Shown here: piece after piece, positions 12,970-23,645 of the stretch
Layout: each line of letters opens with the position of its first letter
Numbering within the stretch: the stretch's first letter is position 1
NCBI GenBank assembly: GCA_963664325.2
Contig: CAXXDQ010000004.1
Coordinates: forward strand, 512,001 to 576,000
From: Desulfomonilia bacterium
GTDB taxonomy: Bacteria; Desulfobacterota; Desulfomonilia; UBA1062
Length of the DNA: 64,000 nt
Direction of reading: 5' to 3'
The notes under the pieces: model-generated
What the model was told of the DNA's origin: nothing
Database searches by the model: none
Seen by the model: the letters and a program-made list of their open reading frames with translations, nothing else
Translations under genes and position numbers: made by a program

Positions 12970-14718
12970 ATGGCTGAAAGGAACAGAAAGAACAGGAATC
13001 CTTTGCAGCCGGGGGTCGCTGACAGAAAAGTTGCGGGTAAAAAAGTACAAGTCCCCCCTGAAAGGATTCTGACTCATCTTAGAGATGTCGTTCTTGTAAT
13101 CAAAAAGGATTTGAGGATCGCATGGGCAAGCCCATTCAGTTTCTGGTGAATGGGGCTATGATGACGCTAAACTGGCCGGAAAGGATGTAAACATGATCCT
13201 GAATCCCTTCTGCTGCCAGGATATTCATGAATGCATTTGACGAAGCACTGTCGGAGAACACTTCCCCTGCCCTCAATCGAAATGCCATTTGAACTGTCCG
13301 TGACTGCCGGGGACGGCTCGAACCTTTGGGTTGAAGCAAGCTGCAGCTTTGTCAGGGATTTTGATGGCGGCGGGAGTGCCATAGTCCTGCTGCTGCCGGG
13401 ATACTTCACTGAGAAAACTTATCGACGACACAATGCAGGAAAATATCAGCCTGCTCCAGATACTCATCGATTCCATTCCGGATGCTATTTTCATCATGGA
13501 TAAGAACGGACGCATTGAAGGCGTAAACAGGTCATTTGAAGATGCAATAGGCCAGCCCGGGGCAACTCTTAACGGAAAGACGCTAAAGGATCTGAACCCG
13601 GCATCCTCCGGCGAACTGATCAACTGGCTTAATACAATAATATCCAGCCTTGAAGGCAGCGCAAAGATACCGCTCGATCAGATAAAATATGCGGACGGGG
13701 GTGTCAGGGATATAGTATTCAACATGATCCCGTATCTGAGCTCTTCCGGTGAGTGTCTGGGAACAATAGGCCGTGGTATACGATGTGACGGAAAGAAAAC
13801 GCCTTGAGAATTCCCTGAGGAAAGAGACAGAAGAACTCAAGGAAGCCCGTGAGGAGCTCTCAAAGAAGAACTCCGAACTTGAAGCCGCGTATACGGAGTT
13901 AAAAGAGACACAGGCTCAAATTCTGCAGCAGGAGAAGATGGCATCAATCGGGCAGCTTGCAGCGGGAGTTGCACACGAGATTAATAATCCGATAGGTTTC
14001 ATATCCAGCAATCTGAGTTCCCTGTCGAAGTATGTTGACAAGATTTCGGAATTTATGACCGCTCAGTCCTCAGTTGCCGGAATTTGCCCGGATAATGAGA
14101 AGAAGATGGCTCTCGAAGAAAAAAAGAAGATATTGAAGATAGACTACATCCAGGACGATATTAAAGACCCTTATCTCGGAATCTCTCGACGGCGCCGAGA
14201 GGGGTCAAGAAAATAGTTCAGGACCTGAAATCGTTCTCAAGGAACGACCAGCTTGAATACCGGGAAGCTGATATAAACGAATGCATGGAAAGCACATTCA
14301 ACATTGTCTGGAATGAGCTCAGATATAAGGCAACCGTAATAAAGGAATATGGCGATATACCTCTTGCGAGATGTTTTCCCCAGCAGATAAACCAGGTGTT
14401 TATGAACCTGCTGGTCAATGCCGTTCATTGCCATTGAAACATCCGGCGAGATCCGTGTGAAAACCTGGGATAAAAATGGATGGATATACGCTTCGATATC
14501 CGATACCGGCCAAGGGATTCCTCCCGAACTGTTAAACAAGATATTCGAACCTTTCTTTACTACGAAAGAAGCCGGTGAAAGGCACAGGTCTCGGTCTGAG
14601 CATTACATACGACATAGTAAGGAAACATGGTGGAGATATATCTGTCGAGAGTGAATCAGGCAGAGGCACCACTTTTACGGTTAGCCTGCCGATAGCAGGG
14701 GTTATTTTCGATGAATAG
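12970..14718 (+). CDS. Cytoplasmic PAS-domain sensor histidine kinase (NtrB-like), multiple frameshifts
   Basis: Fragments give PAS segments ([18 protein letters not shown]), H-box [21 protein letters not shown]-box [31 protein letters not shown] and tail [23 protein letters not shown]. Confidence 0.85.
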
Positions 14719-15529
14719 AAAGATTCGAATCCTTTTCGTAGACGATGAGCAGTCGATACTCAATTCGATGAAACGCCTGTTCATGAACTGCGATTACGAT
14801 ATCCTGACAGCCATATCGGGAGAACAGGGTCTGGAGAAAATCAAGAACAGCCAGCCGGTGCATATCGTCGTTTCCGATTACAGAATGCCGGGTATGAACG
14901 GGGTGGAGTTTTTAAAGGCAGTCAGTAAATACTGGCCTGATTCAGTCAGGATTATCCTTTCAGGTTATGTAGATACCGCAAACGTCATAGCCGCAATCAA
15001 TAGCGGCCAGGTATTCAAAGTCATTACCAAACCATGGAACGACGATGATTTCAGAAATATCATCATAGATTCTGCAGAAAAATATTACACCCAGGAACAC
15101 AACATGGAAACAAGCAGCGTATGGAAACTTGTTGAATCCCTTCCGCTCATAATGCTCAAATTTAATAACGGGGGAGAAATTGTCTGGATGAACCCGAAGG
15201 CCGTCGAAGTGTTCGGGGAAAAGATGCTTCAAAAAAATACAACAGAAGTCTTGCCGGAAATTAAAGAAGTCGTATCTGATGCAAAGGATGCGGGGGAAGC
15301 ATCAGATGTGGTCCTTATAGGAGGCAAATACTATAAGGCCTATGCAGCTAAACTTCAGAAAAACGGAAGCAGTGAAGGCTGTATCCTTGTGCTGGATCTG
15401 AAAGTGAGAATGTCTGAAAATATCCTTATCAGGGAACTTGGCGGAGATATTGCTTTCGAGAGTGAATCGGGCAGGGGCACCGCCTTCACGGTAAGCCGGC
15501 CGGCAGCGGGGGTGAAGTTCGATGAGTAG
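14711..15529 (+). CDS. Response regulator REC-PAS, copy 1
   Basis: [23 protein letters not shown]-like [25 protein letters not shown]. Confidence 0.9.
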
Positions 15530-21232: not shown

Positions 21233-21233
21233 T

Positions 21234-23645
21234 ATGGCGAAGTATTCAAGACTTTTTAAACAGGGACTACCTGAGCAGGTAGAAAATCAGGAAGAACTTC
21301 AGCCGGAGGCTGAAGCAAACGAAAGGTTTACCCTGCTCTTTGTAGACGACGAGGAGAATGTCCTCAAGGCATTGAAACGGGTTTTCCTGGAGGAAAACTA
21401 CAACCTCTTTTTTGCAGACAACGCAGACCAGGCCCTTGAGCTGATCGACAGGGAGGGTATCCAGCTTGTCATTTCGGACTTCAAAATGCCGGGCATGAAC
21501 GGGGTAGATCTTCTCAGGGAAATAAAAAAGAGAAGACCCGAAATAATCAGGATAATGCTGACAGGCCATGCGGATGTGCAGGCGGTAATGGGGGCCGTTA
21601 ATGAAGGAGCGGTGTATAAGTTCATTACCAAACCCTGGAGCGACGAGGATCTGAGGCTGTCGGTAAGCCTTGCGCTGCAGCAGTATGTCCTAGTGAAAGA
21701 GAACAAGATTTTAAAGGAAATCACAAAAAAACAGCAGATCAAGATAAAGAACTTCTCGGCACTGTATGACAAGGACAGAAAATCGCTTGGAAACATTTTA
21801 ATCAAGCAGGGCGTATTAAAGGCTGAAGACCTGGTAACGGCGCAAAAGGAAAAAAAGGACGATGAATTTATAATCGAAACAATCATCAGGCTGGGCATAG
21901 CGACTGATGCGAAGATAATCAAAGCCCTGCAAAGCCATCTGGGTATTGAGTTTATAGATATCAAGGAAACGCACATTAATCCCGGGATAGTCCGCTCGCT
22001 TCCAAAGGATTTCTGTGAACGCAGCAGGTTTATACCTGTAAGGCTTGAAGGAAACAACCTGACCGTTGCCATGGCTGACCCGTCAGATATTTTCTTAAGG
22101 GATAATATTGAATTCCTTACCGGATTAAAGGTATCCCCGCTGATAGCAGGGAGCGCCGACATCCTGAAGGCAATCAGGCAGTCCTATGGAGAAACGGAAA
22201 ACGGTCAGGATGATGATATTGATGTCATGACCGGAATCGAGCCGATGGACGAGATTGATATTGTCATAGATAATGACGATGAAAATATCAATGTTCAGGA
22301 ATTGCTTAACTCTTCGGAAGTTCCGCCGATTATCCGGGTTGTCAACGCAATCATATCGGAAGCGATCAGGTACAAGGCAAGCGATATTCACATAGAACCC
22401 AAAACAAAGTTTACACTTATCCGTTACAGGATAGACGGCATCCTGCACGCCAAGATCAAGCTGCCCATAGACTACCATGCATCGACGATCTCGAGAATCA
22501 AGATACTGTCGAAAATGGATATTTCGGAACGCCGCAAACCCCAGGACGGCAGATTTACGGTTAAATCGGGAACAAGGCTGGTTGATTTAAGGGTTTCAAC
22601 GCTGCCTACTATAAACGGTGAAAAAGCAACATTAAGAATCCTGGATAAAAGCGCTTCCATCAGACAGCTTCAAGACCTTGGCATAATACAGGATGATCTT
22701 GACAGAATCCATAACCTCATGCAAAGGCCCCAGGGAATAATCATTGCAACCGGGCCGACCGGAAGCGGCAAGACCACCCTTCTCTACTCAATACTCAACA
22801 CCATGATGATGCCCACCAAGAATTTTGAAACAATCGAAGACCCTGTGGAATACTTTCTTGAAGATGCAAACCAGGTCTATATCAAAGACAAGTTGGGCCT
22901 TTCTTTTGCCAATGTCCTTCGTTCAACGATGAGGCAGGACCCCGATGTGATACTGGTTGGCGAGATACGTGACCTTGAAACCGCCGATGTCGTTTTCAAA
23001 GCAGGTATGACCGGCCATATGGTCCTGACGACATTGCATACAAACAGCTCTGTCGCTTCCATTACAAGGCTTATTGACCTGGGTGTAAAACCTTACCTGA
23101 TATCGTCTACACTTGAAGGTATAGTTGCACAGAGGCTTGTAAGAAAGATATGCCGGTATTGTAAAGAAGAGGTTGAACCCGATACCGAGATGCTAAGGCT
23201 TTTAAACCTTACAAAAAAACAGGTAGGGGAAAAAGTATTCAGAGGCAGGGGATGCCAGCAGTGTAGCAACTCGGGCTATGGCGGCCGGGTAGGACTTTTT
23301 GAGATATTCACCATGAATGACGATTTCAGACACATCATAAGCAGCAACTACAAAGAGTCGGAAGTCTTGAGCCTTGCAACATCAACAGGCATGTACACAC
23401 TGATGGACGCTGGAATAGCAAAAGTAAAATCCGGTGACACGACCCTTGAAGAACTGATCCGCGTGCTTGGACCGCAGACCAGAAACGAATACAAATGCCC
23501 GTCCTGCAATGCCATGATAGATATGAAGTACCTTTTCTGCCCCTATTGCGGCAACTTCAAACACAATGTCTGCAAGGTATGTAAACTTCCATTGGAAGAG
23601 GAATGGGTTAAATGCCCGTTTTGCGGAGGACACAAGGACAAGTAA
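21234..23645 (+). CDS. Receiver-domain-fused PilB/GspE-family ATPase with C-terminal double zinc ribbon
   Basis: N-terminal REC (VDDE, SDFKMP, KPW); MshEN-like LGNILIKQGVL; Walker A GPTGSGKTT, TIEDPVEY, DPDVILVGEIRD, GHMVLTTLH, CRYC/CQQC; C-terminal CPSC-CPYC-CKVC-CPFC. Confidence 0.92.
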   Translation: MAKYSRLFKQGLPEQVENQEELQPEAEANERFTLLFVDDEENVLKALKRVFLEENYNLFFADNADQALELIDREGIQLVISDFKMPGMNGVDLLREIKKRRPEIIRIMLTGHADVQAVMGAVNEGAVYKFITKPWSDEDLRLSVSLALQQYVLVKENKILKEITKKQQIKIKNFSALYDKDRKSLGNILIKQGVLKAEDLVTAQKEKKDDEFIIETIIRLGIATDAKIIKALQSHLGIEFIDIKETHINPGIVRSLPKDFCERSRFIPVRLEGNNLTVAMADPSDIFLRDNIEFLTGLKVSPLIAGSADILKAIRQSYGETENGQDDDIDVMTGIEPMDEIDIVIDNDDENINVQELLNSSEVPPIIRVVNAIISEAIRYKASDIHIEPKTKFTLIRYRIDGILHAKIKLPIDYHASTISRIKILSKMDISERRKPQDGRFTVKSGTRLVDLRVSTLPTINGEKATLRILDKSASIRQLQDLGIIQDDLDRIHNLMQRPQGIIIATGPTGSGKTTLLYSILNTMMMPTKNFETIEDPVEYFLEDANQVYIKDKLGLSFANVLRSTMRQDPDVILVGEIRDLETADVVFKAGMTGHMVLTTLHTNSSVASITRLIDLGVKPYLISSTLEGIVAQRLVRKICRYCKEEVEPDTEMLRLLNLTKKQVGEKVFRGRGCQQCSNSGYGGRVGLFEIFTMNDDFRHIISSNYKESEVLSLATSTGMYTLMDAGIAKVKSGDTTLEELIRVLGPQTRNEYKCPSCNAMIDMKYLFCPYCGNFKHNVCKVCKLPLEEEWVKCPFCGGHKDK

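Follow-up and report, generated by a model that had tools for sequence, protein, structure and literature searches.

An MglA-family GTPase, a soluble histidine kinase and a receiver-bearing PilB-type ATPase form the conserved core of a bacterial signalling cassette

Within a stretch of 64,000 nt on contig CAXXDQ010000004.1 of a Desulfomonilia bacterium (positions 512,001-576,000; hereafter the window, whose positions serve as coordinates throughout), an operon of signalling genes on the + strand contains three adjacent genes which encode an MglA-family small GTPase, a soluble histidine kinase (HK2) and a hexameric PilB-type ATPase bearing a receiver domain (REC-PilB). These three genes are the invariant core of a cassette which is widespread among bacteria and apparently undescribed, and the operon in the window is a lineage-specific version of this conserved cassette. 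The crosstalk between Ras-like GTPases and two-component systems in bacteria is poorly understood, being an open question for the conservons and an indirectly answered one for MglA of Myxococcus; the cassette presents this question in a compact set of three proteins, with the GTPase, the kinase and the mechanical output encoded together in bacteria that are cultured but are not model organisms. We give about even weight to a model in which the state of the GTPase sets HK2, and HK2 phosphorylates both the receiver of the ATPase and an HD-GYP regulator of the NosR type.

Conservation of the cassette

The GTPase has thousands of relatives, and identities above 70% are held across phyla. With one genome scanned per species, the relatives number at least 591; the best 80 by similarity were fetched, and in these 80 loci the open reading frames (ORFs) of at least 70 aa were matched to the domains of the window proteins by phmmer. 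In all 80 loci the GTPase has REC and HD-GYP proteins and a kinase as its neighbours. The kinase stands directly 3' of the GTPase in every one of the 75 loci whose downstream DNA extends to at least 1400 nt, and the N-terminal domain of HK2 is matched in 68 of these 75 kinases. A PilB core follows within 8 kb downstream in 62 of the 63 loci where at least 4000 nt are available, the sole exception being locus L027, where it lies upstream; in the same 63 loci the PilB ORF carries a REC in 60 cases and a C-terminal zinc ribbon in 36. An HD-GYP protein is encoded within 3 kb upstream of the GTPase in 48/67 loci. Moreover, over 61 loci the three core proteins vary together in their pairwise identities (r=0.89-0.92). 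The titles of the loci name Nitrospirota, Geobacterales, Desulfuromonadales, Syntrophales and Gamma- and Betaproteobacteria, and the cultured carriers include Geomonas, Geotalea, Marinobacter, Pseudomonas indica and Methylomonas.

This order of genes is found again in relatives belonging to several phyla, far beyond what chance would give. An earlier sequence-only reading of this DNA had named, as one way in which it could be wrong, that the gene set might not be kept together elsewhere; the counts above make the set a conserved unit, so that this objection fails. The literature that was covered, outside which subscription journals lie, includes no paper that describes an MglA-like GTPase, a kinase and a REC-PilB in one cluster.

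The surroundings of the cassette were scanned with Pfam in nine loci, covering 95 of 140 ORFs of at least 90 aa, with the identified core genes and short ORFs at the edges left out. These 95 flanking ORFs encode signalling proteins only, i.e. kinases (some with Cache/HAMP), REC, HD-GYP, GGDEF-EAL and HDOD proteins. The description of the system as all-cytoplasmic is right for the operon in the window, where the proteins have no evident transmembrane segment (the maximum Kyte-Doolittle value is 1.52 and no 19-residue stretch reaches 1.6), and does not extend to the relatives, in which membrane kinases with Cache/HAMP are encoded upstream.

Two further features vary among the loci. A small REC-only protein of 140-230 aa is encoded 3' of REC-PilB in 23 of the 59 loci with room for it (e.g. 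L013 14642-15223, L014 14413-14976 and L020 14469-15026) and 5' of the GTPase in 12/80; it is absent in the window and in L001, the closest relative locus, where REC-PilB is instead followed by a TPR/ST7-like gene and purU. In two loci from Geobacter metagenome-assembled genomes, a further large kinase is encoded between HK2 and REC-PilB (L043 11961-15491 and L044 11965-14628).

The GTPase and its predicted partner kinase

The GTPase gene (19306-19962, + strand) encodes a protein of a subfamily with the P-loop GPALSGKT which matches solved MglA of Myxococcus xanthus over residues 8-185 (5ymx at E=1.2e-45, 6h17 and 6hjh at ~1e-45) and Thermus MglA (3t12) at 4e-43, and by its sequence it is a true member of the MglA family. 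Residues A21, R53 and T54 are found in 81/81 sequences and Q82 in 80/81, R53 and Q82 being the intrinsic arginine finger and the catalytic glutamine by which the MglA family is recognised. The G3 motif T78-V79-P80-G81 is likewise kept in all 81, with PGQ replacing DxxGQ. The invariant alanine occupies the position of Gly21 in MglA, which hints at an altered sensitivity to GTPase-activating proteins (GAPs); from the genetics of Ras and MglA, an alanine at this position is expected to blunt GAP-stimulated hydrolysis.

No separate MglB or Robl_LC7 gene was detected by Pfam among the operon proteins or the 95 flanking ORFs of the nine loci, and no Roadblock/LC7 gene lies within four genes of the GTPase, the distance used as the mark of coupling to MglB (PMC4316618). 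The GTPase had earlier been called an orphan MglA, which is accurate in that there is no separate MglB gene, but the adjacent HK2 has an N-terminal domain predicted to dock onto the switch regions of the GTPase, so that in the light of this model the GTPase is probably not an orphan.

HK2 (19964-21232, + strand, GTG start) is by Pfam a HisKA-HATPase kinase, with a core 41% identical to that of HK1, the other kinase of the operon, and a near-identical H-box helix. [quoted passage not shown] In the alignment the helix after the N-domain has an invariant His118 and an 'ERT' segment, which we take to be a signalling-helix signature. The AlphaFold2 models of the N-domain, with a predicted local distance difference test (pLDDT) of 90.9 and 88.6, are composed of a helix, four strands and a helix. 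For the trimmed domain the top Foldseek match is MglB of M. xanthus (6izw_C, E=4.8e-3, TM 0.48), followed by Thermus MglB, Ragulator, Gtr and Asgard roadblock domains (prob 0.9-1.0, E 0.005-0.07), and the modelled domain looks weakly MglB/Roadblock-like.

A profile of this N-domain found 202 representatives (E<=1e-3) among 1.84 billion proteins, nearly all of them with an N-terminal match in proteins of ~400-460 aa or shorter pieces; among the matches listed, the match begins in the first 30 residues in 146/150. The rarity of the profile and its N-terminal placement indicate that the domain belongs to the HK2 kinase family, and this search of representatives gave no link to MglB. Two very long proteins, P0143 (1538 aa) and P0166 (3141 aa), match a part of ~40 residues of the profile 8-10 times each, which is probably an unrelated beta-hairpin repeat.

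The prediction of a complex between MglA and the kinase had been proposed as a check by the sequence-only reading. For the GTPase with residues 1-175 of HK2 we obtained an ipSAE of 0.70 (runs 0.69, 0.71 and 0.70) vs 0.18 for the best control; this mark is reached by 116 of 157 solved complexes and by 2 of 215 mismatched pairs. The contacts agree between runs by at least 90% and the partner pLDDT is at least 81. The predicted interface docks the HK2 N-domain on switch I, the interswitch and switch II of the GTPase (residues 40-47, 56-63, 71-77 and 87-95), and on the side of HK2 it comprises residues 71-75, a nearly invariant EGEP loop, and residues 106-128 around the invariant H118.

Two known systems may be compared with this pair. 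In the first, type IV pilus ATPases are the targets of MglA and SofG, with SofG positioning PilB and PilT, and MglB positions the intrinsic Arg finger and the Gln in MglA (PMC4316618). The window GTPase resembles MglA and SofG of M. xanthus, as well as MglA of Thermus and Bdellovibrio, in its TVPGQ G3, R53 and Q82, whereas it differs from the MglA/MglB pair by the lack of a separate MglB, by the Ala in its P-loop where MglA has Gly21, and by the fixed kinase and REC-PilB neighbours in the cassette, a neighbourhood which is not described in PMC4316618. That source describes variable neighbourhoods for Group 1 and sets aside 59 orphan MglA proteins. The second system is the conservon, or AGPS (CvnA kinase, CvnB roadblock, CvnC and CvnD GTPase), which likewise combines an MglA-type GTPase, a kinase and a roadblock-type element, and which is without a response regulator (PMC4316618); some of its kinases have no sensory domain and rely on accessory proteins (PMC13343842). 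The cassette is found in Nitrospirota, Desulfobacterota-type lineages and Proteobacteria, whereas conservons are found in Actinomycetota; its possible roadblock-like element is fused to the kinase, with no separate roadblock gene, and its output consists of classical receivers and a PilB ATPase.

Receivers, ATPase and the proposed mechanism

The gene directly 5' of the GTPase (17983-19299, + strand) encodes a REC-HD-GYP protein of the NosR-family type with a C-terminal extension and the GFP variant of GYP (Pfam HD_5 4.8e-31). Against the NosR model, NCBIfam NF053512, it scores 456.2 bits (cut-off 400) over residues 12-435 of 438, and its motifs are LHDIGK and HHHENFDGSGFP, with Phe for Tyr; the GFP form is present in 26/31 orthologues of this long type. 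The preceding gene (16333-17979, + strand) encodes a REC-PAS-REC-HD-GYP protein (Pfam two REC, HD_5 1.3e-35, PAS_8) with the full HD-GYP motif, LHDCGK and HHERYDGLGYP. Both proteins are, from their motifs, putative HD-GYP phosphodiesterases. Like RpfG, they combine a REC with an HD-GYP domain having the HD and HHExxDGxG[YF]P motifs, and the receivers in the window resemble the solved REC of the HD-domain regulators 2rjn and 3hv2; unlike RpfG, the window keeps two paralogues side by side, one with canonical GYP and one with GFP and a C-terminal extension, and one of them is joined to REC-PAS. Five receivers of the operon were scanned against the NosR model, that of gene 3 (REC-PAS copy 2) being left out, and all five match its receiver part strongly. 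Because the receivers are NosR-like and the H-box helix is common to HK1 and HK2, both kinases probably address one receiver pool.

This recalls the order nosRPK, in which the regulator NosR is followed by the accessory sensor NosP and by NosK, a soluble kinase that lacks a recognised sensor and has an H-E-I-N-N H-box; NosK is under the control of NosP and in turn phosphorylates NosR (PMC12570481). The window has the same order of a REC-HD-GYP regulator, an accessory protein and a sensor-less kinase with an HEINN H-box. The differences are that the GTPase takes the place of the FIST/haem protein NosP, a FIST domain being detected by Pfam neither in the operon nor among the 95 flanking ORFs of the nine loci, and that a REC-PilB gene stands 3' of the kinase. 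In its logic we rate the cassette closest to the conservon and to the NosP systems, its output being new.

That output, REC-PilB (21234-23645, + strand), has by Pfam the architecture REC-MshEN-T2SSE plus a double zinc ribbon. The receiver covers residues 35-143 (21336-21662; Response_reg 1.8e-25) and is followed by an N1D or MshEN-like domain devoid of the motif for cyclic di-GMP (c-di-GMP) (21783-22199; MshEN 82 bits, aligned to PilB/PilF N-domains), a PilB/GspE-type ATPase core (22320-23462; T2SSE 2.3e-127) and the C-terminal double zinc ribbon (23487-23627; DZR 1.7e-07). Among solved structures, REC-PilB is matched best by PilF and PilB, the extension ATPases of type IV pili, at E 1e-138 to 1e-124 with the N-domain included. 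Among 66 orthologues, the phospho-acceptor Asp D82 of the receiver is kept in 65 and T110 and K133 in all; Walker A, Walker B and the Cys4 zinc site are kept in 65-66, and the cysteines of the zinc ribbon in 36-37, the proteobacterial forms having no ribbon.

In the model which we propose, the GTPase would bind the HK2 N-domain and the following helix via switch I, the interswitch and switch II; this helix would continue through the signalling-helix segment into DHp, and by this continuity the nucleotide state of the GTPase may set the balance between the kinase and phosphatase activities. HK2 would then phosphorylate one shared receiver type, namely the receiver of the ATPase, whose assembly or activity would be gated in this way, and that of the NosR-type REC-HD-GYP encoded upstream. 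HK1, PAS-sensing and with a near-identical H-box, would feed the same receiver pool, enlarged in the window by the tandem duplication of REC-PAS. In such a scheme c-di-GMP would be an output through HD-GYP hydrolysis rather than a ligand of the N-domain of the ATPase, and the ATPase would drive type IV pili encoded elsewhere.

More broadly, and as a tentative proposal, the cassette may represent a G-protein-coupled two-component pathway in several phyla, in which an MglB-like domain was captured by a kinase and the GTP/GDP state of a dedicated MglA paralogue is passed by phosphorylation to a receiver-gated PilB-type motor. If this is true, pilus extension would be reached from a Ras-like switch by a second route that does not depend on MglB. 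Should the model of the preceding paragraph hold, it would give a new mode of PilB regulation through phosphorylation of a fused receiver; the available part of a 2024 PilB review mentions neither a fused receiver nor a GTPase. It would also account for the orphan appearance of some MglA paralogues, and would offer a direct biochemical assay for the coupling of GTPase to kinase.

Several points weigh against the model of a GTPase-set kinase. The survey comprises the best 80 of at least 591 relatives, ranked by similarity, with genes called as ORFs and without a gene finder. For the HK2 N-domain, no Foldseek match reaches E<=1e-3, the TM values are 0.44-0.55, and GAF, DosP and HbpS folds score alongside; Pfam Robl_LC7 is matched in 0/67 of the N-domains even at E<=10, with nothing consistent otherwise, and a protein atlas queried with HK2 1-112 returned hypothetical, PocR and GAF leads only, with scores <=0.92. 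The model of the domain is also without the central helix that is part of the Roadblock fold. Since MglA-MglB complexes have been solved, a part of the complex score may come from likeness and not from binding. On the side of the ATPase, REC-PilB misses the PilB equivalog cut-off (TIGR02538, 559.4 vs 675.65), and no pilC, pilin or pilM adjoins the cassette in the 95 flanking ORFs of the nine loci. Finally, the predicted contact could mean that the GTPase regulates the kinase, or that the kinase domain acts as a GAP for the GTPase.

The latter direction is a rival which we consider unlikely. Here the HK2 N-domain would be an MglB-like GAP or guanine nucleotide exchange factor, and two-component input would control the GTPase, which would recruit or position the ATPase in the manner of SofG/MglA. 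It draws on folds, as the nearest ones are MglB GAPs, but this fold evidence is weak, and the alanine found in all 81 sequences at the position of MglA G21 would, from the genetics mentioned above, leave GAP-stimulated hydrolysis blunted. The conserved R53 and Q82 are the residues which MglB positions in MglA, the predicted interface falls on the switch regions, and the positioning of PilB and PilT by SofG offers a precedent (PMC4316618); against this, the N-domain is wired via the signalling helix to DHp, the usual geometry of a sensor input.

A second rival concerns the machine rather than the switch: REC-PilB may be an ATP-dependent signalling or scaffold protein, or may power a type II secretion-like or unknown machine. 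Besides the lack of pilC, pilin and pilM next to the cassette in the nine loci, the protein falls below the GspE equivalog cut-off (TIGR02533, 529.4 vs 630.25) as it does below that of PilB, it has the extra REC and double zinc ribbon, and PilB of M. xanthus has been reported as a signalling protein for exopolysaccharide (PMC5544727). Nevertheless its best full-length matches are PilF and PilB and its catalytic motifs are all kept, and we consider a non-pilus role improbable.

The circuit put forward by the sequence-only reading, in which phosphorylation, an orphan MglA and c-di-GMP acting through MshEN converge on an alternative type IV pilus motor, has in its favour the conservation of the cassette, the two HD-GYP proteins in the operon and the MshEN match. 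REC-PilB is indeed similar to the c-di-GMP ATPases MshE/PilB in having the Pfam MshEN N-domain with the ATPase core, but it is without the tandem 24-residue motif and has a fused receiver as its regulation. This motif consists of two tandem copies of RLGxx(L/V/I)(L/V/I)xxG(L/V/I)(L/V/I)xxxxLxxxLxxQ, and in the relaxed form of PMC5013675 it is present in 0/66 REC-PilB orthologues; the G40 position is Gly in 12/66 and the G11 position in 34/66, and at the two Arg positions Q and M, and F and P, are the most frequent residues. With the relaxed motif in none of the orthologues, convergence of c-di-GMP through MshEN is left without its defining site. A perfect motif may not be needed for binding (PMC5013675), but PilB of Xanthomonas and Pseudomonas aeruginosa has the N-domain and no c-di-GMP binding (PMC10333796). 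The cassette also cautions against taking a Pfam MshEN match for evidence of such binding. Given also the dedicated partner predicted for the GTPase in HK2, we lend this circuit little credence.

The operon in the window

The operon had been read as eight co-oriented genes, overlapping or 1-6 bp apart. The spacing is confirmed, with junctions of -8, -8, -8, +3, +6, +1 and +1 nt from HK1/gene 2 onward, and so are seven of the genes, which are intact co-oriented ORFs on the + strand (14711-23645); the first one, the PAS kinase HK1, is not an open frame, its sequence being spread over seven frame segments. The Pfam count agrees with two kinases and six receiver domains, and finds no DNA-binding output among the operon proteins, as previously described. 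A scan for promoters and terminators was uninformative (19 promoter-like sites vs 19.6 expected).

HK1 (12970-14718, + strand, with a broken frame as given) is a cytoplasmic PAS histidine kinase, identified by tblastn with the orthologue in L001 and by Pfam PAS, HisKA and HATPase_c on fragments. L001 is collinear with the window over 7674-28605 at ~80% identity, and its intact 578-aa PAS kinase matches 12970-14718 over residues 1-578 in alternating frames. Relative to the L001 nucleotides, HK1 has nine 1-bp insertions, one 3-bp insertion and zero deletions. In the L001 frame HK1 shows no internal stop, its amino-acid identity is 79.6% and its H-box is intact; its ratio of nonsynonymous to synonymous substitution rates (dN/dS) vs L001 is 0.10, the same as for HK2 and within the 0.055-0.10 of the genes tested. 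Unpaired 1-bp insertions vs L001 cluster at 11126-14576, where fabD (11191-12027) is broken as well as HK1 and the yceD region is touched, whereas the coding regions at 7.7-11.0 kb and 14.7-26 kb are free of them, and 11126-14576 looks like a low-quality stretch of the assembly. Because the insertions are localised to ~11.1-14.6 kb, fabD is also hit, there are no stops and dN/dS is 0.10, the breaks are most likely a local sequence error and not decay. A pseudogene is disfavoured on the same grounds, a very recent inactivation of HK1 being still conceivable.

The genes that follow HK1 derive from an 811-bp tandem repeat in three copies, which start at 14618, 15429 and 16240 (to 17050) and are 77-81% identical; the earlier reading had missed it. 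Genes 2 and 3 stem from the triplication, as does gene 4 over its first 239 codons, and L001 has a single copy of the unit. Each unit consists of ~100 nt from the 3' end of HK1, then REC-PAS and the opening codons of the next REC, and because it begins inside the 3' end of HK1, copies 1 and 2 carry a vestigial HATPase tail. Copy 1 is a REC-PAS response regulator with such a C-terminal tail (14711-15529, + strand; Pfam Response_reg 3.9e-19, weak PAS), and copy 2 is another (15522-16340, + strand; Response_reg 2.6e-22); for PAS_8, with its cut-off of 21.8, copy 2 lies above (28.1) and copy 1 below (19.7). A 2-bp deletion vs L001 is found at 17020 in copy 3 and at 15398 in copy 1, and through that in copy 3 its REC-PAS is joined to a short canonical HD-GYP regulator, the two being separate genes in L001 and L013. 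Between copies dS is 0.4-1.0 and dN/dS 0.13-0.34, rates from which the copies are judged to be old and under purifying selection. The vestigial HATPase tail, with dN/dS ~1.25 over 32 codons only, looks unconstrained.

Elsewhere in the window, pilMNOPQ (56669-61204) is located 33 kb from the cassette. It had been reported together with two PilZ proteins, of which one is present (26774-27187) and the second was not found in nine further ORFs scanned. Just 5' of pilMNOPQ a small protein with a PEP-CTERM motif (53472-53912) and a rhomboid-family protease (55535-56185) are encoded. An amine oxidase-type flavoprotein (3638-5174) and ftsH (62063-63872) are each split into two ORFs with Pfam halves, in a way similar to HK1, and these splits may be further error patches or real frameshifts. 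The G+C content declines from ~0.56 at 1-6000 of the window to ~0.39-0.41 around 52-60 kb.

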